From: an uncultured Pyrinomonadaceae bacterium | GTDB lineage: Bacteria > Acidobacteriota > Blastocatellia > Pyrinomonadales > Pyrinomonadaceae | Assembly: GCA_902805935.1 (NCBI GenBank) | Contig: CADCUR010000001.1 | Location: 1 to 55,920 of the forward strand | Length of the DNA: 55,920 bases | Direction: 5' to 3' | In this document: positions 1,707 through 54,110 of the stretch, piece after piece | Layout of the letters: the number at the start of each line of letters is the position of its first letter | Position numbering within the stretch: position 1 is the first letter of the stretch | Notes under the pieces: model-generated | Told to the model about the DNA's origin: nothing | Seen by the model: the letters and a program-made list of their open reading frames with translations, nothing else | Databases searched by the model: none | Position numbers and translations under genes: made by a program

Positions 1707-1753
1707 TCGGTCGTAGAACTCGGTAAACCGGAATTCACGACCGATTTTGTTTT
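1707..1753 (+). terminator. Leader intrinsic terminator / attenuator upstream of cysM
   Basis: TCGGTCGT (1707-1714) pairs with ACGACCGA (1737-1744), with extra inner pairing (GAA/TTC, TCGG/CCGG). A TTTTGTTTT tract follows at 1745-1753, ending 11 nt before the cysM ATG. Confidence 0.55.
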
Positions 1754-1764
1754 CGGTGAAAAAG

Positions 1765-2712
1765 ATGGAATCGGCAGTTTTAGAAAAAGATTCAAAAGAA
1801 AACCAAGCGCGTCTGGAAGCGCAAATCGGTAACACGCCGCTCGTTCGTCTGCGCCGCGTCGCGGAAGATTTGCCCGAAAACGTCGAGATTTACGCGAAAG
1901 CCGAACATTTAAATCCGGGCGGTTCGGTGAAAGACCGCGCGGCTCTGGCGATGATTCGGGCGGGCGAAAAATCGGGCGAGCTGACGAAAAATAAAACTAT
2001 TCTTGATGCGACGAGCGGCAATACCGGAATCGCCTACGCGATGATCGGCGCGGCTCGCGGTTATCGAGTTACGCTTTGTTTGCCGAAGAACGCGAGCCTC
2101 GAACGCAAACGTATTTTAAGGATTTACGGCGCGGAAATCATCGAAACCGACCAGATGAATGGCACGGACGGCGCGCAAATTATGGCTAAAGAGCTTTACG
2201 CGAAACATCCCGAAAAGTATTTTTATCCCGACCAATACAACAACGAAGCCAATTGGCGAGCGCATTACGAACAAAGCGCGCCGGAAATCTGGCGGCAAAC
2301 AGAAGGGAAAATAACGCACTTTGTCGCCGGTTTGGGAACTACCGGCACTTTTGTCGGCACGGCGCGCGGGTTGAAAGAACTCAATCCGAAAATTCAAATG
2401 ATTTCGATGCAGCCGGATTCGCCGCTGCACGGACTCGAAGGAATGAAGCATCTGGAAACGGCGATTGTGCCGGGAATTTACGATGCGAGTTTAGCGGATG
2501 AAAACGTCGAAGTAACGACCGAAGACGCGCACGAAATGACGCGCCGTTTAGCGAAAGAAGAAGGTTTGCTGGTCGGTGTCAGCGCGGGCGCAAATGTTTT
2601 CGCCGCCGTGCGTTTGGCGCGGAAATTAAAAACCGATGCTGTTATCGTGACGGTTTTATGCGACGGCGGCGGCAAATACTTGAGCGAAAATTTTTGGAAC
2701 GAGAAGCAGTAG
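1765..2712 (+). CDS. cysM: Cysteine synthase, PLP-dependent (CysM/CysK family, probably the sulfur-carrier-dependent CysM type)
   Basis: The ORF shows a PLP-lysine region (NPGGSVKDR), the SGNTG loop and a GxGTxGT-like loop (GLGTTGT). The ATG at 1765 is preferred over the track TTG at 1747, which lies inside the leader U-tract. Its neighbours are a JAMM peptidase and a CysO-like carrier. Confidence 0.9.
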   Translation: MESAVLEKDSKENQARLEAQIGNTPLVRLRRVAEDLPENVEIYAKAEHLNPGGSVKDRAALAMIRAGEKSGELTKNKTILDATSGNTGIAYAMIGAARGYRVTLCLPKNASLERKRILRIYGAEIIETDQMNGTDGAQIMAKELYAKHPEKYFYPDQYNNEANWRAHYEQSAPEIWRQTEGKITHFVAGLGTTGTFVGTARGLKELNPKIQMISMQPDSPLHGLEGMKHLETAIVPGIYDASLADENVEVTTEDAHEMTRRLAKEEGLLVGVSAGANVFAAVRLARKLKTDAVIVTVLCDGGGKYLSENFWNEKQ

Positions 2713-2731
2713 TTTTTACAAAATTTCAAAC

Positions 2732-3169
2732 GTGATTACATTAACCGAAGAACAAATTTCAGAAATTGAAAAACACGGCGAGCGTGAATATCCGTTTGAA
2801 TGCTGCGGCTTGCTCGTCGGGAGTTTCGCGGCGAACGGAGAAAAACAAGTCGCCGAAATTTTCCCGATTGAGAATGCCCGTGAAGAATCAGCAAAGCATA
2901 ATCGCTCCTTGATCACGCCGCAGGATTTAATGCGCGGAGAAAAATACGCGCGCGGAAAAAAACTCGATATTGTGGGGAATTATCATTCGCATCCAGATCA
3001 TCCGGCAATCCCGTCGCAATTCGATTTAGACCACGCGCTTCCGGTTTGGTCATACGTTATTGTTTCAATCGAAAAGGGAAAAGCGGTTGACGCGCGTTCT
3101 TGGGAAATGGAAAACGACCGCTCGAAATTTAATGAGGAAGAGATTATAAAAATAATGAATCAGGATTAA
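2732..3169 (+). CDS. mec: JAMM/MPN+ metallopeptidase (Mec-like)
   Basis: 145 aa with a complete JAMM motif: E in PFECCG, then HSHPDHPAIPSQFD (HxH-x7-S-xx-D). The GTG start lies 19 nt after the cysM stop. Confidence 0.85.
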   Translation: MITLTEEQISEIEKHGEREYPFECCGLLVGSFAANGEKQVAEIFPIENAREESAKHNRSLITPQDLMRGEKYARGKKLDIVGNYHSHPDHPAIPSQFDLDHALPVWSYVIVSIEKGKAVDARSWEMENDRSKFNEEEIIKIMNQD

Positions 3170-3213
3170 GAATGATGAATGAAAACTATGAAACTATTAT
3201 TCATCATTCTTAA
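3166..3213. repeat. 14-bp perfect hairpin between mec and cysO-moeZ, arms with heptamer periodicity
   Basis: TTAAGAATGATGAA (3166-3179) pairs with TTCATCATTCTTAA (3200-3213) around a 20-nt loop. The left arm overlaps the mec stop codon. Arms read as 7-nt units (TGATGAA TGAAAAC ... TCATCAT TCTTAAT TCATCAT). Confidence 0.7.
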
Positions 3214-3239
3214 TTCATCATTCAGGGAGAAATAAGTTT

Positions 3240-4694
3240 ATGGCAGTAACAGTTGTAATTCCGACTCCGCTTCGACAATTCGCGGGCGGAAAATCGGAAA
3301 TTGAAGTCGAAGCGACGACGGCGGGCGAGGCGTTGGAGAAATTGACGACCGCGCACGCCGATTTGAAAAAGCATCTTTACAACGACCAGGACAAACTGCG
3401 AAGTTTCGTCAACGTTTACGTCGGCGACGAAGACATCCGGCACACGGGCGGCGAAACGACTCCGGTTAAAGACGGCGAAACTATTATGATTGTGCCGTCA
3501 ATCGCGGGCGGAAATTTTGGCGCGGAAGCCAGAGCGGAAAGGGAATTGCCGGCGCTGACGAATGAAGAATACGCGAGATATTCGCGGCATTTGATTTTGC
3601 CGGAAGTCGGACTTGAAGGTCAGAGAAAATTAAAAGCGGCGCGTGTTTTGATGATTGGCACGGGCGGTTTGGGTTCGCCTTTGGGTTTATATCTGGCGGC
3701 GGCGGGCATCGGCACAATCGGCTTGGTTGATTTCGATGTCGTGGACGAGTCGAATCTTCAGCGCCAGATCATTCACGGGACGAAAGATGTCGGGCGACCG
3801 AAAATCGCGTCGGCGAAAGACCGTCTGAACGACATCAACCCGAACACGCGAATCGAAACTTACGAAACGATGCTGACGAGCGCGAACGCTTTGGGATTAT
3901 TCAAAGATTACGACGTGATTGTTGACGGCACGGACAATTTTCAAACGCGCTATCTCGTCAACGACGCTTCGGTTCTGACCGGAAAACCGAATGTTTACGG
4001 CTCGATTTTTCGTTTTGAAGGACAGGCGAGCGTCTTTTGGGCGGAAAAAGGCGCGTGTTACCGATGTCTTTATCCCGAACCGCCTCCGCCGGGACTTGTT
4101 CCGTCGTGTGCCGAAGGCGGCGTGTTGGGTGTTTTGCCCGGCATCGTCGGCACGATTCAGGCGAATGAAGTTATTAAAGTCATTCTCGGCGCAGAAGGGA
4201 TTTTGTTAAATCGTTTATTGCTTTTCGACGCCTGGACGATGAAGTTCCGCGAATTGAAACTTCGCAAAAATCCCGATTGTCCATTGTGCGGAACAAATCC
4301 GACGATTAAAGAATTGATTGATTACGAAGCGTTTTGCGGTCTAAAGCAACCGAATGATGAAAAGAAAGAAGTTTTGGAAGAAATAACGGCGACCGAGTTA
4401 AGCGATTTAATTAAAACGAGCGCCGATGTGCAAATAATTGACGTGCGTGAGCCGCACGAGTACGAAATCGCCAGAATTCCGAATACGAAATTGATTCCGC
4501 TCGGCGAAGTTATCAAACGCGCCAGTGAAATTGACGCGAATCAAACCGCTATCATTCACTGCAAAGCCGGTGGGCGCAGCGCGAAAGCGATTGAAGCGTT
4601 AAAAGCGAACGGTTACACAGGAAAGTTGATTAATCTGAAAGGCGGCATCACGGCTTGGTCGAACGAGGTTGACCGCGAAGTGCCGAAATACTAA
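3240..4694 (+). CDS. moeZ: Fusion protein: ThiS/MoaD/CysO-like ubiquitin-fold domain (aa 1-91, ends AGG) + MoeB/ThiF E1-like adenylyltransferase + C-terminal rhodanese (MoeZ-like)
   Basis: A GGGAGA ribosome-binding site precedes the ATG. The N-terminal 91 aa end in IAGG (nt 3240-3512). The E1 domain has GTGGLGSP, zinc-site cysteines CYRC and CPLCG, and the SCAEGGVLG loop. The rhodanese active site is HCKAGGRS. The frame is continuous with no stop between domains. Confidence 0.85.
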   Translation: MAVTVVIPTPLRQFAGGKSEIEVEATTAGEALEKLTTAHADLKKHLYNDQDKLRSFVNVYVGDEDIRHTGGETTPVKDGETIMIVPSIAGGNFGAEARAERELPALTNEEYARYSRHLILPEVGLEGQRKLKAARVLMIGTGGLGSPLGLYLAAAGIGTIGLVDFDVVDESNLQRQIIHGTKDVGRPKIASAKDRLNDINPNTRIETYETMLTSANALGLFKDYDVIVDGTDNFQTRYLVNDASVLTGKPNVYGSIFRFEGQASVFWAEKGACYRCLYPEPPPPGLVPSCAEGGVLGVLPGIVGTIQANEVIKVILGAEGILLNRLLLFDAWTMKFRELKLRKNPDCPLCGTNPTIKELIDYEAFCGLKQPNDEKKEVLEEITATELSDLIKTSADVQIIDVREPHEYEIARIPNTKLIPLGEVIKRASEIDANQTAIIHCKAGGRSAKAIEALKANGYTGKLINLKGGITAWSNEVDREVPKY

Positions 4695-4703
4695 TAAATG
4701 GAA

Positions 4704-4754
4704 AACGGAAAACGGAAAATGAAATCTTTTATTTTCCATTTTCCGTTTTCCGTT
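4704..4754. terminator. Bidirectional terminator hairpin between convergent moeZ and sodA
   Basis: The perfect 18-bp stem AACGGAAAACGGAAAATG (4704-4721) pairs with CATTTTCCGTTTTCCGTT (4737-4754). The left arm is GGAAAAC GGAAAAC GGAAAAT, three tandem heptamers. Confidence 0.75.
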
Positions 4755-4760
4755 AAACAA

Positions 4761-5402
4761 TTATTCCGCGCGCAGTCTTTCGTAACGCTGCGCGATTGCG
4801 TCCCAATCTACTGTGTCCCACCAGGCTTTCAGATAATCCGGGCGGCGGTTGTTGTATTTCAGGTAATAAGCGTGCTCCCAAACGTCGTTGCCGAGAAGCG
4901 GCTCGACGCCTCGGTGAAACGGCGTGTCTTGATTCGGCTGCGACGCGATTTCTAATTTACCGCCGCTTGCGGTGGTGACGAACACCCAGCCCGAGCCGAA
5001 TTGTTTGACGCCCGCGTCGTTGAATTTCGTTTTGAAATCGTCGAACGAACCGAACGCGCCGTCAATCGCCGTTGCCAAATCGCCCGACGGTTTGCCGCCG
5101 CCGGATTTCATAATCGTCCAGAACATCGAATGATTGATGTGTCCGCCGCCGTTGTTGCGAACCGCGCCGCGCACCTCTTCCGGAACGCCGTCCAAACCGG
5201 AAAGCAATTCCGATAAAGTTTTTCCGTGCAAATCCCGGTGTTGTTCGACGGCTTTGTTGAGATTGTCCACATACGCCTGATGGTGTTTGTCGTGATGCAG
5301 ACGCATTGTTTCCGCGTCAATGACGGGTTCAAGCGCGTCGAAATCGTATTCGAGCGCGGGCAGTTCAAACGGATATTTCTGGTCTTTCGCTTCAGTCGCC
5401 AT
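4761..5402 (-). CDS. sodA: Superoxide dismutase, Fe/Mn family (Mn-type signature)
   Basis: HHDKHH, GGGHINHSMFW and DVWEHAYYLKYNNRRPDYL motifs are present. The ATG at 5402 is preferred to the track TTG at 5411 because of spacing to the GGGAGA ribosome-binding site. Confidence 0.93.
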   Translation of the reverse strand: MATEAKDQKYPFELPALEYDFDALEPVIDAETMRLHHDKHHQAYVDNLNKAVEQHRDLHGKTLSELLSGLDGVPEEVRGAVRNNGGGHINHSMFWTIMKSGGGKPSGDLATAIDGAFGSFDDFKTKFNDAGVKQFGSGWVFVTTASGGKLEIASQPNQDTPFHRGVEPLLGNDVWEHAYYLKYNNRRPDYLKAWWDTVDWDAIAQRYERLRAE

Positions 5403-5450
5403 AATTTTCAATTTTCTCCCTTTTAAGTATGATTAATAAAACGGTCTTGC

Positions 5451-5522: not shown

Positions 5523-5879
5523 TTACTCTTGCGGTCTCCCGCCCGCGTCAATGCCTTCGACGCTCGCCTGGCGAACGACTTTGACGTGCAAATCGTCAAT
5601 TACGCGCATTTGACACGACAGCCGCGTATGGTCGTTTAAGTCTGTTTTTGTCGCTAAGATAACTCGTTCGGGGTCGCCGATTTCGCCCGGGTCGCCGTCT
5701 AAAATCTCGACGCGACAAGTCGTGCATTTGGCGTTTCCGCCGCACCGGTGCAAAATGTCAACGCCGTTGTCTTCGAGCGCCAAAACGAGCTTTCTGTTTT
5801 CTTCGACATCGAAAGCGATTGTTCCCTGCGCCGCTTCCGCCGTTATTCTGAATACTTTTCCGATTGCCGGATCTGACAT
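5523..5879 (-). CDS. 2Fe-2S ferredoxin
   Basis: 118 aa with the cluster-ligand pattern CGGNAKCTTC ... C (RLSCQ), typical of fer2-type ferredoxins. Confidence 0.8.
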   Translation of the reverse strand: MSDPAIGKVFRITAEAAQGTIAFDVEENRKLVLALEDNGVDILHRCGGNAKCTTCRVEILDGDPGEIGDPERVILATKTDLNDHTRLSCQMRVIDDLHVKVVRQASVEGIDAGGRPQE

Positions 5880-5941: not shown

Positions 5942-6730
5942 CTAAAAAATCGGAAACAACGATTTATTTTCCGTCGGCGGCTGGTCGCCTCGGTATAAGA
6001 CTCGTTCGAGAAATAAACCCGACGGCGGTGCCGTGTGTTTGGCGGCAGCGTTCGATCGAAATTTCAAAAGACGTTCAAAATCAGAAACCGAAGCGCCTCC
6101 GCGCCCGACTTCCGCCAGCATTCCGACGATTCTTCTAACCATTTTCCACAGAAAATGAGACGCGCCGATGCGGAAACATATCAAATCCCGGTCGGTGAAA
6201 ATCTCGCTTCGTTCGACTGCGACGACGGTTGATTGTTTTTTCGTTTCGTCAATCTCGCAGAGCGATTGAAAATCGTGTTTGCCGACGAGCAGCGCGGCGG
6301 CTTCACGCATCGCGTCCGTTTTCAAATCGTCTTTTATCCACCATACGAAATTTTTCGCAAACGCCGTGCGCCGCGTCGAAATTTGGTAAAGATAAAACCG
6401 TTGCACTGCATCGCGTCTGGCGTCGAAGTTTTCCGGCGCGTTTAACACTCTTTTGACGTTGATGTCGTGCGGCAACAAATCGTTGAAGCCGAATTGAATC
6501 TGGCGCGGCGTGACGTTAGCTTTCAAATCAGAAACGCGCAGATGAGCGATTTGCGACACGGCGTGAACGCCTGCGTCGGTGCGTCCGGCACCGCCGAGTT
6601 CGACTTTGCCGGAAAAAAGTTGGTAAGCCGCTTTTTGCAATTCGCCCTGCACGGTATTGGCGTTGTGCTGAATTTGCCAGCCGCGATAACGCGTGCCTTC
6701 GTATTCGATTTCGAGTTTCCAGGTTGGCAT
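5942..6730 (-). CDS. truA: tRNA pseudouridine(38-40) synthase
   Basis: It has YEGTRYRGWQIQ near the N-terminus and the catalytic GRTDAGVHA motif. The ATG at 6730 (MPTWKLEIEYEGT) is preferred. The track start at 6778 would extend the gene into an inverted repeat. Confidence 0.9.
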   Translation of the reverse strand: MPTWKLEIEYEGTRYRGWQIQHNANTVQGELQKAAYQLFSGKVELGGAGRTDAGVHAVSQIAHLRVSDLKANVTPRQIQFGFNDLLPHDINVKRVLNAPENFDARRDAVQRFYLYQISTRRTAFAKNFVWWIKDDLKTDAMREAAALLVGKHDFQSLCEIDETKKQSTVVAVERSEIFTDRDLICFRIGASHFLWKMVRRIVGMLAEVGRGGASVSDFERLLKFRSNAAAKHTAPPSGLFLERVLYRGDQPPTENKSLFPIF

Positions 6731-6917: not shown

Positions 6918-7790
6918 ATGAAATTTGTCGAACGAGGGAAGGAAAAATTATCGAAAAGAATTTCGGCGGCGGTCTCGACGGGAACACCGCTGCGCGAACT
7001 GGCGAGCAATATTTCGGTTACGGCGCGTCACGCGCTGGCGGAAGCTGATACTTTGATTGTCGAAACAGTTCGAATTCATTTGAAACGCTTGCCGAAAAAT
7101 CTCGACGGCTGGCGCATCGCACATTTGTCGGACATTCACCACAGTCCCTTCACGAGTCTCGAACATATTTTGCGCGCCGTCGAAATAGCCAATGAATTAA
7201 AACCCGATATGGTATTTTTGACTGGCGATTTCGTTTCGCACGAACGTGAATACATCGAGCCGATGGCGCAAGCGATGGGACGGCTCAAGTCAGAATTCGG
7301 AACTTTCGCTTGCCTGGGAAATCACGACCACCGCACCGATGCGACACTGGTGACCGACAGTTTGCGGGCGGAAAACATCCGCGTTTTAATCAACGAAGGT
7401 TTTCGGTTTTCGGCGCGCGGCGCATCGTTTTGGCTCGGCGGAACAGACGATTATATGGTTGGATTGACTGATTTGCCCGCCGCTTTGCGCGGCTCGTTTC
7501 CCGACGAAATGAAAATGCTCCTGGCACATAATCCAAAAACTTTGTATCGCGCCGCCCGCGCCGGAGTGGATCTGATGTTCAGCGGACATACGCATGGCGG
7601 GCAGGTCAGACTGCGCGACGAGGAAAAGAAAATTCTGCCGCGCCGCCGGTTTGCGAGCGGTCTTTACCGACGCAAAGATTCGCAAATGTATATCACGCGC
7701 GGAATCGGCACGGTCGTTCTGCCGGTGCGCTTTGGCTGCCCCCCAGAAGTTTCTTTAATCGAACTGCGTTCAAGCGGTCTTTGGTCTTAG
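6918..7790 (+). CDS. Metallophosphoesterase (calcineurin-like, YkuE/YaeI-like)
   Basis: It carries the DIHH, GDFV, GNHD and GHTHGGQ motif series. Confidence 0.85.
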   Translation: MKFVERGKEKLSKRISAAVSTGTPLRELASNISVTARHALAEADTLIVETVRIHLKRLPKNLDGWRIAHLSDIHHSPFTSLEHILRAVEIANELKPDMVFLTGDFVSHEREYIEPMAQAMGRLKSEFGTFACLGNHDHRTDATLVTDSLRAENIRVLINEGFRFSARGASFWLGGTDDYMVGLTDLPAALRGSFPDEMKMLLAHNPKTLYRAARAGVDLMFSGHTHGGQVRLRDEEKKILPRRRFASGLYRRKDSQMYITRGIGTVVLPVRFGCPPEVSLIELRSSGLWS

Positions 7791-7870
7791 GGCTTGGGTC
7801 TTCGATCACTCAAGCACATTGGGGTTTAGGAAAACAAAGACCGAAGATCAAAAACCAAAGACCCAAGATT
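7776..7870. repeat. Tandem degenerate heptamer arrays in inverted orientation (imperfect hairpin)
   Basis: GGTCTTT GGTCTTA GGGCTTG GGTCTTC lies at 7776-7803. AAAGACC GAAGATC AAAAACC AAAGACC CAAGATT lies at 7836-7870. GGTCTTTGGT is complementary to ACCAAAGACC. The left array encodes the C-terminus and stop of the phosphoesterase gene. Confidence 0.7.
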
Positions 7871-7873
7871 AAA

Positions 7874-8467
7874 ATGAACGGTATCATCACAATCCCAAAT
7901 CTGCTCACCTTTCTGCGAATGGCTCTCATTCCCGTTTTCGCCATTTTGCTCGTTTACGGTCAAAGCGGTTGGGCATTGCTGACTTTTTTCGTGGCGGGCA
8001 TCTCCGACGGCATTGACGGTTTTGTCGCCCGCCGTTTTAATCAAGAGTCGGAACTCGGCACGATTCTCGACCCGATTGCCGATAAACTTTTGATGACGAC
8101 GGCGTTTATTATCTTAACTCTGCCAAACATTTTCCCGCCGACGCGCCATCTGCCCGTGCCGTTTTGGGTAACTGCCGCTGTCATCGGGCGCGACATTCTT
8201 ATCATCGCCGTTGCCGGCGCGATTTTCATCATCACGAATTTTCGCGGCTTTAAACCGTCTTGGCTCGGCAAGGCAAGCACCGTTGTCCAAATCTTTGCCG
8301 TCGGTTTGGTTCTCGTCGCCGCTATTTTCCCATCGCTGAGAGGTTTTTATTTGCCGACCGTCTATACGACGGTTTTCGCTTTCGCCGTGTTTTCCGGGCT
8401 TCATTACATATTTCACGTTGCCAAATTGATGACGGAAACCAATGCTGGTAAAGGAGAGCGGCTATAA
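7874..8467 (+). CDS. pgsA: CDP-alcohol phosphatidyltransferase (PgsA-like)
   Basis: The complete family motif is present: DGIDGFVARRFNQESELGTILDPIADK (D-G-x2-A-R-x8-G-x3-D-x3-D). The protein is multi-transmembrane and about 197 aa. The ATG at 7874 is preferred, since the track start at 7781 reads through the heptamer repeat. Confidence 0.8.
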   Translation: MNGIITIPNLLTFLRMALIPVFAILLVYGQSGWALLTFFVAGISDGIDGFVARRFNQESELGTILDPIADKLLMTTAFIILTLPNIFPPTRHLPVPFWVTAAVIGRDILIIAVAGAIFIITNFRGFKPSWLGKASTVVQIFAVGLVLVAAIFPSLRGFYLPTVYTTVFAFAVFSGLHYIFHVAKLMTETNAGKGERL

Positions 8468-8498
8468 TTAAATATCTTATCTTTTGTCGCTCACCAAA

Positions 8499-8519
8499 CT
8501 TGACAAGAAGACACTCAAA
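8499..8519 (+). promoter_or_regulatory. HAIR-like (HspR-associated inverted repeat) candidate operator
   Basis: CTTGACA-N7-ACTCAAA matches 11 of 14 positions of the HAIR consensus CTTGAGT-N7-ACTCAAG. It overlaps the -35 box, and an hspR-like gene closes the operon. Confidence 0.4.
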
Positions 8520-8528
8520 TCTTATAAT
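8500..8528 (+). promoter_or_regulatory. Consensus sigma70 promoter of dnaK
   Basis: TTGACA (8500-8505), exactly 17 nt of spacer, TATAAT (8523-8528). It lies about 80 nt upstream of the dnaK ATG. Confidence 0.7.
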
Positions 8529-8605
8529 TTTTTACAGCTCAGGTAAGTTATAGTTTTATCTTTTACGAGTTAAAGCGAGAAATTTTTTATTGGAGAAAAA
8601 CGAGA

Positions 8606-10549
8606 ATGAGTAAAATTATAGGAATTGATTTAGGAACAACAAATTCGGTCGTCGCCGTGATGGAAGGCGGCGAGCCGGTAGTGATTACCAATTCAGAAGG
8701 CGGACGCACGACTCCTTCGGTCGTCGCTTTTACGAAAGACGGCAATCGTCTGGTCGGGCAGGTCGCCAAACGACAATCAGTGACGAACCCGGAAAACACT
8801 TTATATTCCATCAAACGATTTATGGGTCGCCGCTTTGAAGAAGTCGGCGGAGAAATCAAGCAAGTGCCGTATAAAGTCGAAAAGGCGGGCAACGGCGACG
8901 TGCGCATCAATGCCGACGGCAAACAATACAGCCCGCCGGAAATCGCCGCGATGGTTTTGCAGAAGTTGAAACAATCGGCGGAAGATTATCTCGGCTCTAA
9001 AGTTGATAAAGCCGTCATTACCGTTCCGGCGTATTTTAACGACGCGCAGCGGCAGGCGACCAAAGATGCGGGCAAAATCGCTGGTCTCGAAGTGATGCGT
9101 ATCGTCAACGAGCCAACGGCGGCGGCGCTCGCTTACGGTTTGGATAAAAAGAAAGAAGAAACGATTGCCGTGTTCGACTTTGGCGGCGGAACTTTCGATA
9201 TTTCCGTTCTTGAAGTCGGCGAAGGCGTGGTCGAAGTTAAATCAACCAATGGCGACACTCACCTCGGCGGCGACGACGTTGACGAAGAATTGATTAAATG
9301 GATTATTGACGAGTTCAAAAAAGATCAGGGCATTGATTTGACCGCCGACAAAATGGCTTTGCAGCGCCTTAAAGAAGCGGCGGAAAAAGCCAAAGTCGAA
9401 TTATCATCGGCGATGGAAACCGAAATCAACTTGCCGTTTATCACGGCGGACGCTTCGGGTCCGAAACATCTGGTGATGAAGCTGACGCGCTCGAAATTTG
9501 AGCAGTTGGTTGAACCGATTTTGAGAAAATTGATGCCGCCGGTCGAGCAGGCGATTAAAGACGCCGGAATCGAAGCCAAGAACATTGACGAAATCGTTCT
9601 GGTCGGCGGTTCGACGCGCATTCCGAAAGTTCAGGAAATGGTCAAAAACTTTTTCGGGAAAGAGCCGAACAAATCGGTTAACCCGGATGAAGTCGTTGCT
9701 ATCGGCGCGGCGGTTCAAGCGGCGGTTTTGGGCGGCGAAAAAACCGACATTCTGCTTCTCGACGTAACGCCTTTGAGTCTCGGAATTGAAACTTTAGGCG
9801 GCGTGATGACGCAGATGATTACGCGCAACACGACGATTCCGACGCGCAAATCGGAAATCTTTTCGACGGCTTCGGACAATCAAACGTCGGTCGAAGTTCA
9901 CGTAATGCAGGGCGAGCGTCCGATGGCAGGCGACAACAAAACGCTTGGTAAGTTTCACCTCGTCGGCATCCCGCCCGCACCGCGCGGCGTTCCACAGGTC
10001 GAGGTGACTTTTGATATCGATGCGAACGGCATTGTCAACGTTTCGGCGAAAGATGTCGGCACGGGACGCGAGCAGAAAATCACCATTACGGCTTCCTCAG
10101 GTTTGTCAAAAGAAGAAATTGACAAAATGATGAAAGATGCCGAATCGCACGCGGGCGAAGACGAGAAAAAGAAAGCGGAAATCGAAGCCAGAAACCGGCT
10201 CGACGGGCTTGTCTATTCGGTTGAAAAAACTTTCAGCGAAAACAAGGACAAACTCGACCAGGCGGCTTCGAGCGAACTTGAAACCGCCATCTCAGAAGCA
10301 AAAACCGCTTTGAACGGAACTGATGCCGATGCGATGAACAGCGCATTCGACCGTCTGCAAACCGCTTCGCACAAGCTCGCGGAAGTTATTTATAACCAAA
10401 CGAGCGCGAACACCGGCGGGGCAGCGACTGAAGAACAAGCGTCTTCGGCGAGCGCGGGCGGCGACACAACGACATCTTCGACTTCGGGCAGTGGTGACGA
10501 TAATGTGATTGATGCCGAATACGTTGATGTTGACGAAGAGAAAAAGTAA
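8606..10549 (+). CDS. dnaK: Molecular chaperone DnaK (Hsp70)
   Basis: 647 aa with the [18 protein letters not shown] and [10 protein letters not shown] Hsp70 signatures. A GGAGA ribosome-binding site precedes it. Confidence 0.98.
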
Positions 10550-31327: not shown

Positions 31328-31455
31328 AATTTCAAACACGAAGCGAGCGAACGTAAAAGATAAAAAGTCGAGCATCTGACAACAAAGTCAGCAATTGCGT
31401 CAAACAGAATCAATTTCATCGTTTCTCATTTTCCGAAAAACTTCTCGTGTTCAAT

Positions 31456-31485
31456 AAAAAAGACGATCAAATGATCGTCTTTTTT
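31456..31485. terminator. Bidirectional intrinsic terminator (acyl-CoA dehydrogenase / S8 protease, convergent)
   Basis: The sequence is AAAAA-AGACGATC (31461-31468), loop AAAT, GATCGTCT (31473-31480), TTTTT. Confidence 0.85.
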
Positions 31486-31508
31486 ATTTGGAATGTTTCA
31501 AACGAAAT

Positions 31509-46100: not shown

Positions 46101-46172
46101 GCCCTTGTAGCTCAACGGTAGAGCGCGCGGCTCATAATCGCTCGGTTACAGGTTCGAATCCTGTCGAGGGCA
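46101..46172 (+). tRNA. tRNA with CAT anticodon (elongator Met, or Ile2 if lysidine-modified)
   Basis: It folds by hand into a cloverleaf. The acceptor stem is GCCCTTG/CGAGGGC (one G-U pair), with D arm GCTC..GAGC, anticodon loop CTCATAA and T arm ACAGG-TTCGAAT-CCTGT. The discriminator is A and no CCA is encoded. A G1-C72 pair and no GGG/CCC in the anticodon stem argue against an initiator. Confidence 0.85.
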
Positions 46173-49352: not shown

Positions 49353-49418
49353 AAATTTAACTCAAAAGAAAAACGGCGAAGCGTTTCTGCTTCGCCGTTT
49401 TTCTTTTGAGTTAAATTT
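49353..49418. terminator. Perfect 30-bp hairpin between convergent DPP-IV and slt-like genes
   Basis: AAATTTAACTCAAAAGAAAAACGGCGAAGC (49353-49382), loop GTTTCT, exact reverse complement at 49389-49418. Confidence 0.85.
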
Positions 49419-54042: not shown

Positions 54043-54110
54043 AGATAAAAAGTAAAAGCCGTCTAAAATAAACATTCAAATTTATTTTAGACGGCTTTTA
54101 CTTTTTATCT
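54043..54110. terminator. Perfect 30-bp hairpin between the convergent VWA gene and the following hypothetical gene
   Basis: AGATAAAAAGTAAAAGCCGTCTAAAATAAA (54043-54072), loop CATTCAAA, exact reverse complement at 54081-54110. Confidence 0.85.

Follow-up and report, generated by a model that had tools for sequence, protein, structure and literature searches.

A CysO-type sulfur carrier fused in frame to its E1-rhodanese enzyme beside a JAMM peptidase gene in an uncultured Pyrinomonadaceae bacterium

Background

How can a ubiquitin-like sulfur carrier be activated when its terminal Gly-Gly lies inside the reading frame of its own activating enzyme? The question is raised by a 55,920-nt stretch of contig CADCUR010000001.1 from an uncultured Pyrinomonadaceae bacterium (the whole stretch, about 56 kb, is called the window below), in which three co-oriented open reading frames (ORFs) on the (+) strand encode a cysteine synthase (cysM), a JAMM/MPN+ metallopeptidase, and a protein that joins a CysO-type carrier to an E1 adenylyltransferase and a rhodanese domain. 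Members of the carrier family can be adenylated and thiocarboxylated only when the carboxylate of the C-terminal glycine is free (PMC3227635), so a fused CysO ortholog must be released. The best explanation of the locus, and in our judgment a probable one on the grounds of sequence and analogy, is that the JAMM peptidase releases the carrier after Gly91, and that the carrier would then enter a CysO/MoeZ/CysM/Mec+ cycle for thiocarboxylate-dependent cysteine synthesis.

Domain composition of the fusion protein

The genes and domains on which the argument depends are the following.

1747 to 2712, + strand: cysM, pyridoxal phosphate (PLP)-dependent cysteine synthase (O-acetylserine or O-phosphoserine sulfhydrylase); Pfam PALP, expectation value (E) 4e-75
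2732 to 3169, + strand: gene of a Mec+-type JAMM/MPN+ metallopeptidase, 145 aa; Pfam Prok-JAB
3165 to 3214, + strand: AT-rich hairpin in the JAMM/fusion intergenic region, located by inverted repeat and folding
3240 to 4694, + strand: fusion ORF, 484 aa, carrier plus E1 plus rhodanese in one uninterrupted frame
3240 to 3512, + strand: CysO-type ubiquitin-like sulfur-carrier domain, aa 1 to 91; Pfam ThiS; cleavage predicted after nt 3512
3513 to 3575, + strand: linker, aa 92 to 112, from Gly-Gly to the RYSRH helix of the E1; variable and predicted flexible
3576 to 4343, + strand: MoeB/MoeZ/Uba4-type adenylyltransferase (E1) domain; Pfam ThiF and motifs
4386 to 4664, + strand: rhodanese domain; Pfam Rhodanese; active-site Cys441

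Pfam profiles matched the 484-aa ORF as ThiS (aa 5 to 91, E 1.7e-9, or 7e-11 when the carrier was searched alone, with a score exceeding the model cut-off), ThiF (aa 114 to 348, E 2e-82), and Rhodanese (aa 383 to 475, E 9e-17). The carrier ends in VPSIAGG, with Gly90-Gly91 encoded at nt 3507 to 3512, and the same ORF continues for 393 residues, which leaves the Gly-Gly internal and not at a free C-terminus. Within the E1 were located RYSRH (113 to 117, arginine-finger helix), GTGGLG (140 to 145, ATP loop), the zinc-ligand CxxC pairs CYRC (273 to 276) and CPLC (347 to 350), and SCAEGG (289 to 294), which holds the crossover-loop Cys290; the rhodanese has CKAGGR (aa 441 to 446, nt 4560 to 4577) with the active-site Cys441. 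GTGGLG, CYRC, CPLC, and SCAEGG are invariant or nearly so in an alignment of fused relatives, and Cys441 is nearly invariant.

The NCBIfam MoeB/MoeZ models meet the ORF at aa 105 with model positions 10 to 14, and therefore the E1 starts almost directly after the carrier. The PRK08762 MoeB model scored 450.7, narrowly above its cut-off of 449. The best match of the E1-rhodanese part in the PDB was Uba4 (6yub, E 3e-60), MoeB (1jw9) was matched at 4e-55, and a fold search also placed this part nearest to Uba4 and MoeB; it is assigned by these comparisons to the E1-rhodanese enzymes of the MoeZ/Uba4 type. An internal start giving a separate E1 was considered and rejected. The only candidate codons are TTG at 103 and CTG at 106, and the AGGGAA that precedes them is badly spaced; such a start cannot replace cleavage, because the C-terminus of the carrier would stay unfreed.

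Identity of the carrier domain

A phmmer search of the PDB aligned the carrier with CysO of Amycolatopsis orientalis (4n6e_B, E 3e-21, residues 1 to 91 against 1 to 90) and with CysO of Mycobacterium tuberculosis (3dwg_C, E 1e-16, residues 1 to 91 against 1 to 93). Both alignments run end to end, and the Gly-Gly of the carrier falls on the C-terminal Gly-Gly of the two CysO proteins. An AlphaFold2 (AF2) model of aa 1 to 91 gave a beta-grasp fold with a predicted local distance difference test score (pLDDT) of 92.8, for which Foldseek returned template modeling (TM) scores of 0.90 to 4n6e_B and 0.86 to 0.87 to 3dwm/3dwg; root-mean-square deviations from the CysO chains were 1.6 to 2.3 Å, and the next structural matches were SAMP1, Urm1, and MoaD. 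From alignment and model together the N-terminal domain is read here as a CysO ortholog. In the AF2 model of the full-length protein the carrier is well folded and aa 87 to 98 have pLDDT below 50, which suggests that the Gly-Gly junction is exposed and flexible.

A preliminary description of this DNA, made from the letters alone, had proposed that a beta-grasp carrier of 91 residues is fused in frame to a Uba4-like E1-rhodanese in ORF 3240 to 4694, that a complete JAMM gene stands directly upstream with cysM before it, and that no E2-like gene is present. The profile matches, motifs, and models bear out these proposals, and no E2-like (UBC) gene was found among the genes neighboring the operon.

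The fused domain might also stay attached permanently and serve the E1 in cis, for docking or regulation, with a separate free carrier encoded elsewhere in the genome transferring the sulfur and the JAMM protein confined to a Mec+ role. Precedent exists in the Ubl-ThiF (ubiquitin-like domain plus ThiF) fusions of Iyer et al., which co-occur with stand-alone ThiS and for which a different role was suggested (PMC1779556); moreover, M. tuberculosis MoeZR serves several carriers (PMC3227635), and only 56 kb of this genome is visible. We nevertheless hold a permanent cis domain to be improbable. The domain is orthologous to stand-alone CysO and 74% identical to the free carrier of a related locus (L001), and the junction Gly-Gly is invariant even in fusions as distant as 39% identity, whereas the linker drifts, the spacing from Gly-Gly to RYSRH being an unconserved 10 to 23 residues in the divergent fusions. 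No other Gly-Gly-ended carrier ORF was found in the operon or in the 56-kb window, and fused and split states interchange on the tree described below.

Support for the reading frame from DNA and RNA

The locus is present in public biocrust and soil sequencing runs. DNA contig X1 covers positions 1728 to 3951 gap-free, and four RNA contigs cross the Gly-Gly junction, also gap-free (X5, 3232 to 3617; X6, 3226 to 3610; X4, 3427 to 3748; X8, 3466 to 3793). The preliminary description had made the fusion depend on an unbroken frame at this point, and neither a stop codon nor a frameshift was found there. The cysM/JAMM boundary is spanned by RNA contig X6 (2513 to 2793) and the JAMM/fusion boundary by RNA contig X8 (3014 to 3334), which reads through the intervening hairpin; on this evidence cysM, the JAMM gene, and the fusion gene are co-transcribed as one unit.

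All 119 of the 119 other best-scoring clusters share the fused architecture (81 to 92% identity, 481 to 493 aa), their named members being mostly metagenome-assembled genomes (MAGs) of Acidobacteriota or Pyrinomonadaceae, and it is found as well in 50%-identity representatives at 39 to 60% identity. Short ThiS-only matches were considered as possible split genes and mostly set aside as contig-end fragments or as long-read frameshifts with broken neighbors. The carriers of two close relatives, L001 and L003, are genuine stand-alone proteins with short tails.

The notion that the fusion is a sequencing or assembly artefact, or a pseudogene joining two genes, could draw on frameshifts found just after the Gly-Gly in P0123, P0153, L022, L035, L042, and L060. 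The frameshifted loci come from error-prone long-read MAGs in which neighboring genes are broken too (L004). With the fusion intact in more than 120 clusters and in 50 of 80 genomes, and with the frame confirmed by independent DNA and RNA contigs, this notion is already refuted and retains practically no probability; the fusion is no assembly error.

Survey of related loci

How widespread the fused form is, and whether it always accompanies a JAMM gene, had been left to a survey. Species-representative genomes were scanned with a carrier alignment, which yielded more than 590 relatives, and the best 80 were kept. Fused carrier-E1-rhodanese genes make up 50 of these 80 loci (4 of the 50 run off a contig end), and a further 4 are frameshifted fusions from long-read MAGs. 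A stand-alone carrier is followed 68 to 330 nt downstream by a separate E1-rhodanese gene in 23 loci, and has no E1 in the flank in the remaining 3. The JAMM gene lies directly upstream of the carrier on the same strand in 79/80 loci, and every fused locus examined has one. Further upstream, a gene for CysM and/or a Cys_Met_Meta_PP sulfhydrylase was found in 77/80, two of the three exceptions being at contig ends.

No carrier in the 80 loci ends at Gly-Gly. All 26 stand-alone carriers have a tail after it, ranging from a single residue (R, K, or L) to 41 residues. The carriers of L001 and L003, the close relatives that a protein look-up had turned up, end in Gly-Gly-VSTEV and Gly-Gly-KSSGQKRI. 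Processing is thus needed in fused and split forms alike. The residue that follows the Gly-Gly is variable (N, S, A, T, I, or V).

A neighbor-joining tree of the E1-rhodanese part places the window in a Blastocatellia clade that is uniformly fused. Elsewhere the forms are mixed, L081 and L061 falling within split clades and L069 in the midst of fused forms, which implies from the sequences compared that the state changed at least three times; being interleaved in this way, fused and split forms appear functionally equivalent. The bulk of the fused genomes are Pyrinomonadaceae/Blastocatellia, and fusions were also found in MAGs labeled Armatimonadota, Chloroflexia, Eisenbacteria, Elusimicrobia, Vicinamibacteria, and Bryobacterales.

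Several loci depart from the common arrangement. One protein, P0279 (L085, 6001 to 7860), has all four domains (JAMM, carrier, E1, and rhodanese) in the same polypeptide of 619 aa, where a cut after the Gly-Gly would keep the carrier joined to the JAMM domain. Its gene is preceded by that of an EamA-family transporter and followed by genes for a PALP cysteine synthase, a hexapeptide-repeat (CysE-like) protein, and an AlaX-like tRNA_SAD protein. The JAMM gene of L084 overlaps the start of the fusion gene, and ORF translations alone suggest an Rrf2-type regulator and a 406-aa cysteine desulfurase directly downstream (7595 to 9307); the putative desulfurase could plausibly supply the rhodanese persulfide.

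In a Terriglobia-type clade (L066, L068, L071, L074, L063, and L065) the tails of the stand-alone carriers end Cys-rich (SSLRCICS, CARRCICR, ...PLRCICS, MPLRCVCS, ...LLVCCCC, and ...GACCQ), with a recurring R-C-[IV]-C-[SR] C-terminus. These carrier genes end at about 6274 to 6400 of each locus, or at about 1113 to 1185 in L071.

Many loci of Pyrinomonadaceae and Chloracidobacterium (L006-L010, L013, L017-L021, L023, L025, L028-L031, L033, L034, L036, L038, L067, and L079) have a Cys_Met_Meta_PP gene (O-acetylhomoserine sulfhydrylase or cystathionine synthase type) between cysM and the JAMM gene, about 420 to 750 nt ahead of the carrier. This suggests that homocysteine or methionine synthesis is supplied by the same carrier as well. 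No such gene was found anywhere in the 56-kb window.

JAMM peptidase, CysM, and the proposed pathway

The protein encoded immediately upstream of the fusion gene matched Prok-JAB at E 5e-23 (81.6 bits against a cut-off of 25) and, as its top match in the PDB, 2kcq_A at 8e-26. Its active-site motif is complete, consisting of E23 (in ECCG) and HSHPDHPAIPSQFD at aa 85 to 98, in which H85-x-H87-x7-S95-x2-D98 (HxHx7Sx2D) corresponds to nt 2984 to 3025. The cysM product scored 362.5 with the NCBIfam model TIGR01136 (cysKM, cut-off 344) and 378.6 with the equivalog model TIGR01138 (cysM), just under its cut-off of 394. It is classed as a cysteine synthase of PLP fold-type II and is predicted, by analogy, to use up the thiocarboxylate of the carrier.

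The proposed pathway has precedents in characterized systems. In M. tuberculosis, MoeZR thiocarboxylates CysO and Mec+ hydrolyzes CysO-Cys (PMC3227635). DR0402 of Deinococcus radiodurans and HvJAMM1 cleave the natural linear fusions MoaD-MoaE and SAMP1-MoaE, exposing the terminal Gly (PMC8832034, PMC4443979), and QbsD/QbsE and CxnF/CxnE pair cluster-encoded JAMM enzymes with tailed carriers (PMC5925218). PfJAMM1 is reported, as cited in PMC8832034, to recognize the carrier body and not the leaving group, and the variable residue after the Gly-Gly fits recognition of this kind.

By these analogies, the JAMM peptidase would hydrolyze the Gly91-Asn92 bond to give free CysO with a C-terminal Gly-Gly, and the same cut would leave an E1-rhodanese that starts where stand-alone MoeZ does. 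The E1 would then adenylate Gly91, and the persulfide on rhodanese Cys441 would turn the adenylate into a thiocarboxylate, as homology predicts. CysM would add the thiocarboxylate to the PLP-aminoacrylate, forming CysO-Cys, from which the JAMM peptidase, acting like Mec+, would liberate cysteine and regenerate CysO. Once the first cut had been made the carrier would cycle freely, and a single JAMM enzyme probably performs both the cleavage of the fusion and the hydrolysis of CysO-Cys. The fusion itself would mainly secure co-synthesis of carrier and E1 in equal amounts, and could arise easily by loss of a stop codon between adjacent cysO and moeZ genes.

Release might instead come from autoproteolysis or a housekeeping protease, the JAMM protein being limited to hydrolysis of CysO-Cys. 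The linker is predicted to be disordered and so generally accessible to proteases, and what Mec+ is known to do is hydrolyze the adduct (PMC3227635). Gly91 must, however, be exposed precisely, which proteolysis of a non-specific kind would not achieve; JAMM is the only enzyme class shown to act on sulfur carriers in this way (PMC8832034, PMC5925218), and its gene is adjacent in 79 of the 80 loci and lies within the same chain in L085. Hydrolysis of CysO-Gly-Gly-Cys and of CysO-Gly-Gly-Asn... is also the same peptide-bond chemistry, the cuts before Cys and before Asn being one reaction. Release by another protease is accordingly rated very improbable.

Another possibility is that the carrier, once released, serves chiefly to modify proteins in the manner of SAMPylation, urmylation, or TtuB-type conjugation, with the E1 as its activating enzyme and the JAMM protein as its deconjugase. 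The carrier reached 50 bits with a SAMP1 model (cut-off 60), the JAMM protein matched a desampylase model weakly, some relatives bear the annotation 'ubiquitin-like small modifier protein 1', SAMP1 and Urm1 are among the structural neighbors, and Urm1 is described as conjugating independently of an E2 (PMC9574740). The tight linkage to cysM and/or Cys_Met_Meta_PP genes (77/80 loci), the lack of an E2 or E3 gene nearby, and the CysO proteins as nearest characterized homologs all speak against this reading. They are compatible with modification as a side activity, and as the main role it appears quite improbable.

Several observations weigh against release by the JAMM peptidase into a cysteine pathway. 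Every enzymatic step, including the cleavage, the thiocarboxylate, and the acting protease, is inferred by analogy. The full-length AF2 model is of moderate quality only (pLDDT 70; predicted TM score 0.54), and for this reason the docking of carrier and E1 is not readable from it. The E1 falls under the equivalog cut-offs of two models (PRK07411 MoeB, 571 against 633; PRK07878 MoeZ, 506 against 647). The cysM product is nearer to Escherichia coli CysM (2bhs, 1e-75, its top match in the PDB) than to M. tuberculosis CysM (3dwg_A, 2e-55), an O-phosphoserine-specific enzyme. The RNA evidence consists of assembled metatranscriptome contigs, which may contain DNA, and with only 56 kb of the genome visible a second, free carrier may be encoded elsewhere. 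Finally, L054 (6001 to 6270) alone among the 80 loci has neither a JAMM gene nor CysM within 6 kb upstream; its carrier ends in Gly-Gly-KNF, and an E1-rhodanese gene begins 168 nt downstream.

A more speculative extension, which we consider unlikely, is a zymogen-like switch in which carrier and E1 are both inactive until the JAMM cut, so that the peptidase gates the thiocarboxylate pathway. The uncut carrier would have no free carboxylate, and the RYSRH helix, 21 residues past the Gly-Gly, may be encumbered; gating may operate, for example, under oxidative stress. The freed carrier may further be conjugated without an E2, in the manner of Urm1, and the conjugation reversed by the same JAMM enzyme, and the Cys-rich tails and the single-chain JAMM-carrier-E1-rhodanese protein may represent other forms of control.

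Comparison with known systems

The closest characterized system is CysO/MoeZR/CysM/Mec+ of M. tuberculosis (Burns 2005; O'Leary 2008; Voss 2011, PMC3227635), which comprises the same four protein families as the window and shares with it an E1 with C-terminal rhodanese and the clustering of the JAMM and cysM genes. M. tuberculosis makes CysO as a protein of its own with Gly-Gly at its very end, and its moeZ lies outside the cluster, whereas in the window the carrier is fused before the E1; a maturation cut is therefore needed in the window, unlike in M. tuberculosis.

Translation of a carrier ahead of a partner enzyme, with a need for a free C-terminal Gly, is shared with MoaD-MoaE/DR0402 and SAMP1-MoaE/HvJAMM1. 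There the cut by a JAMM/MPN+ enzyme has been shown experimentally, whereas in the window we infer it, and the partner is the sulfur acceptor MoaE of the molybdopterin pathway and not, as here, the activating E1 of a cysteine pathway. In the QbsE-CF/QbsD and CxnE-decapeptide/CxnF systems (PMC5925218), a cluster-encoded JAMM enzyme trims the residues after the Gly-Gly. The split relatives, with their tails of 1 to 41 residues, are exactly of the QbsE/CxnE type, whereas the 'tail' in the window is a whole 393-aa enzyme. HcyS-Ala/HcyD of Wolinella is another case of a short-tailed carrier precursor.

The E1-rhodanese architecture and a beta-grasp thiocarboxylate carrier are shared with Uba4/MOCS3-Urm1, but Urm1 is translated on its own, with its Gly-Gly already free, and has no JAMM maturation. 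From the bacterial Ubl conjugation operons (E1-E2-JAB; rows 6a-e of Iyer 2006) the window differs in having no E2-like gene nearby and a rhodanese on its E1. In the Campylobacter-type Ubl-ThiF proteins (Iyer 2006) the Ubl is distinct from ThiS/MoaD and a separate carrier is present in the operon, whereas the fused domain of the window is a predicted CysO ortholog with Gly-Gly and no separate carrier was found in the operon or window.

Much of the arrangement was anticipated. Operon type 4c of Iyer, Burroughs and Aravind 2006 comprises ThiS/MoaD, E1-rhodanese, JAB, and cysteine synthase and includes an acidobacterium, and the same authors proposed that a fused ThiS or MoaD could be detached by the JAB protein and so acquire a free C-terminus (PMC1779556). 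A 2024 survey of fusions reported MoaD-MoeB and MoaD-MoeB-rhodanese proteins in Archaea, with more than 55% identity to acidobacterial proteins (PMC11237513) and the same domain architecture as the window protein. The 2006 and 2024 papers label the carrier MoaD, in a molybdenum cofactor context, and contain neither a link of the fusion to JAMM and cysM nor an analysis of the junction. No publication tying the fusion to a JAMM/cysM context or testing it was found in the literature searched, which did not cover Burroughs et al. 2009.

Intergenic hairpins

The preliminary description had placed a 14-bp hairpin in the gap ahead of the fusion gene and suggested that it could set the expression ratio of the JAMM and fusion genes. 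The hairpin is present and longer than described, with perfect arms of 16 nt at 3165 to 3180 and 3199 to 3214, and folds with 20 pairs (free energy -24.8 kcal/mol, z -4.8); a consensus terminator scan did not list it. The regulatory suggestion did not hold. As a conserved regulator the hairpin was rejected: it is unconserved, similar hairpins are common in the window, and the transcript reads through. The gap between JAMM and carrier genes in relatives has a median of 31 nt and is often 0 to 20 nt or an overlap, and the long gaps that do occur hold non-homologous hairpins (L006, L017, L019, L034, L042, and L058). A 14-nt insertion at 3198/3199 (ATTCATCATTCTTA, a repeat of the 3' hairpin arm) was found in DNA run X7 and in metatranscriptome run X8, so the hairpin is polymorphic between co-occurring strains. 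It is local and polymorphic, lies outside the design of the system, and may have a modest effect on mRNA stability.

Further long and often perfect AT-rich intergenic hairpins are located at 4693 to 4765, 31453 to 31488, 49353 to 49418, and 54043 to 54110, and some arms consist of short tandem repeats, such as GGAAAAC three times at 4698 to 4720. These hairpins may be a lineage-wide class of terminator or a small palindromic element.

Neighboring genes

Two further features of the window were recorded.

4693 to 4765, no strand: long hairpin between the convergent fusion gene and sodA, formed by inverted repeats I1 and I4; probable bidirectional terminator
46101 to 46172, + strand: tRNA gene, the only Rfam match in the window

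The neighbors of the operon are lipA, sodA, truA, and genes for an S26/S24-type peptidase, a 2Fe-2S ferredoxin, a phosphoesterase, and a CDP-alcohol phosphatidyltransferase. The Fe/Mn superoxide dismutase gene (4761 to 5411, - strand) and the 2Fe-2S ferredoxin gene (5523 to 5879, - strand) converge on the operon, and their arrangement relative to it is syntenic in L004. The CysO pathway of M. tuberculosis is reportedly induced by oxidative stress (PMC3227635), and the sodA/ferredoxin neighborhood may for that reason not be accidental. An Rfam search of the window found no riboswitch or other known RNA upstream of cysM.

Significance

The fused CysO/E1 is a real, widespread, and largely anticipated variant of a known pathway; it introduces no new principle and leaves the understanding of sulfur-carrier chemistry unchanged. 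Hundreds of fusion proteins are named only 'molybdopterin-synthase adenylyltransferase MoeB', a name that hides both the carrier domain and the link to cysteine synthesis. The question posed in 2006 was whether the JAB/JAMM proteins of sulfur-carrier operons are maturation enzymes besides being the enzymes that release the product. The comparative data sharpen it, in that every carrier in the survey continues beyond the Gly-Gly, by anything from a single residue to an entire E1, and changes between the fused and split states have occurred several times. The three adjacent genes of the window offer a compact test case, in which cleavage and thiocarboxylate would both be readable by mass spectrometry.

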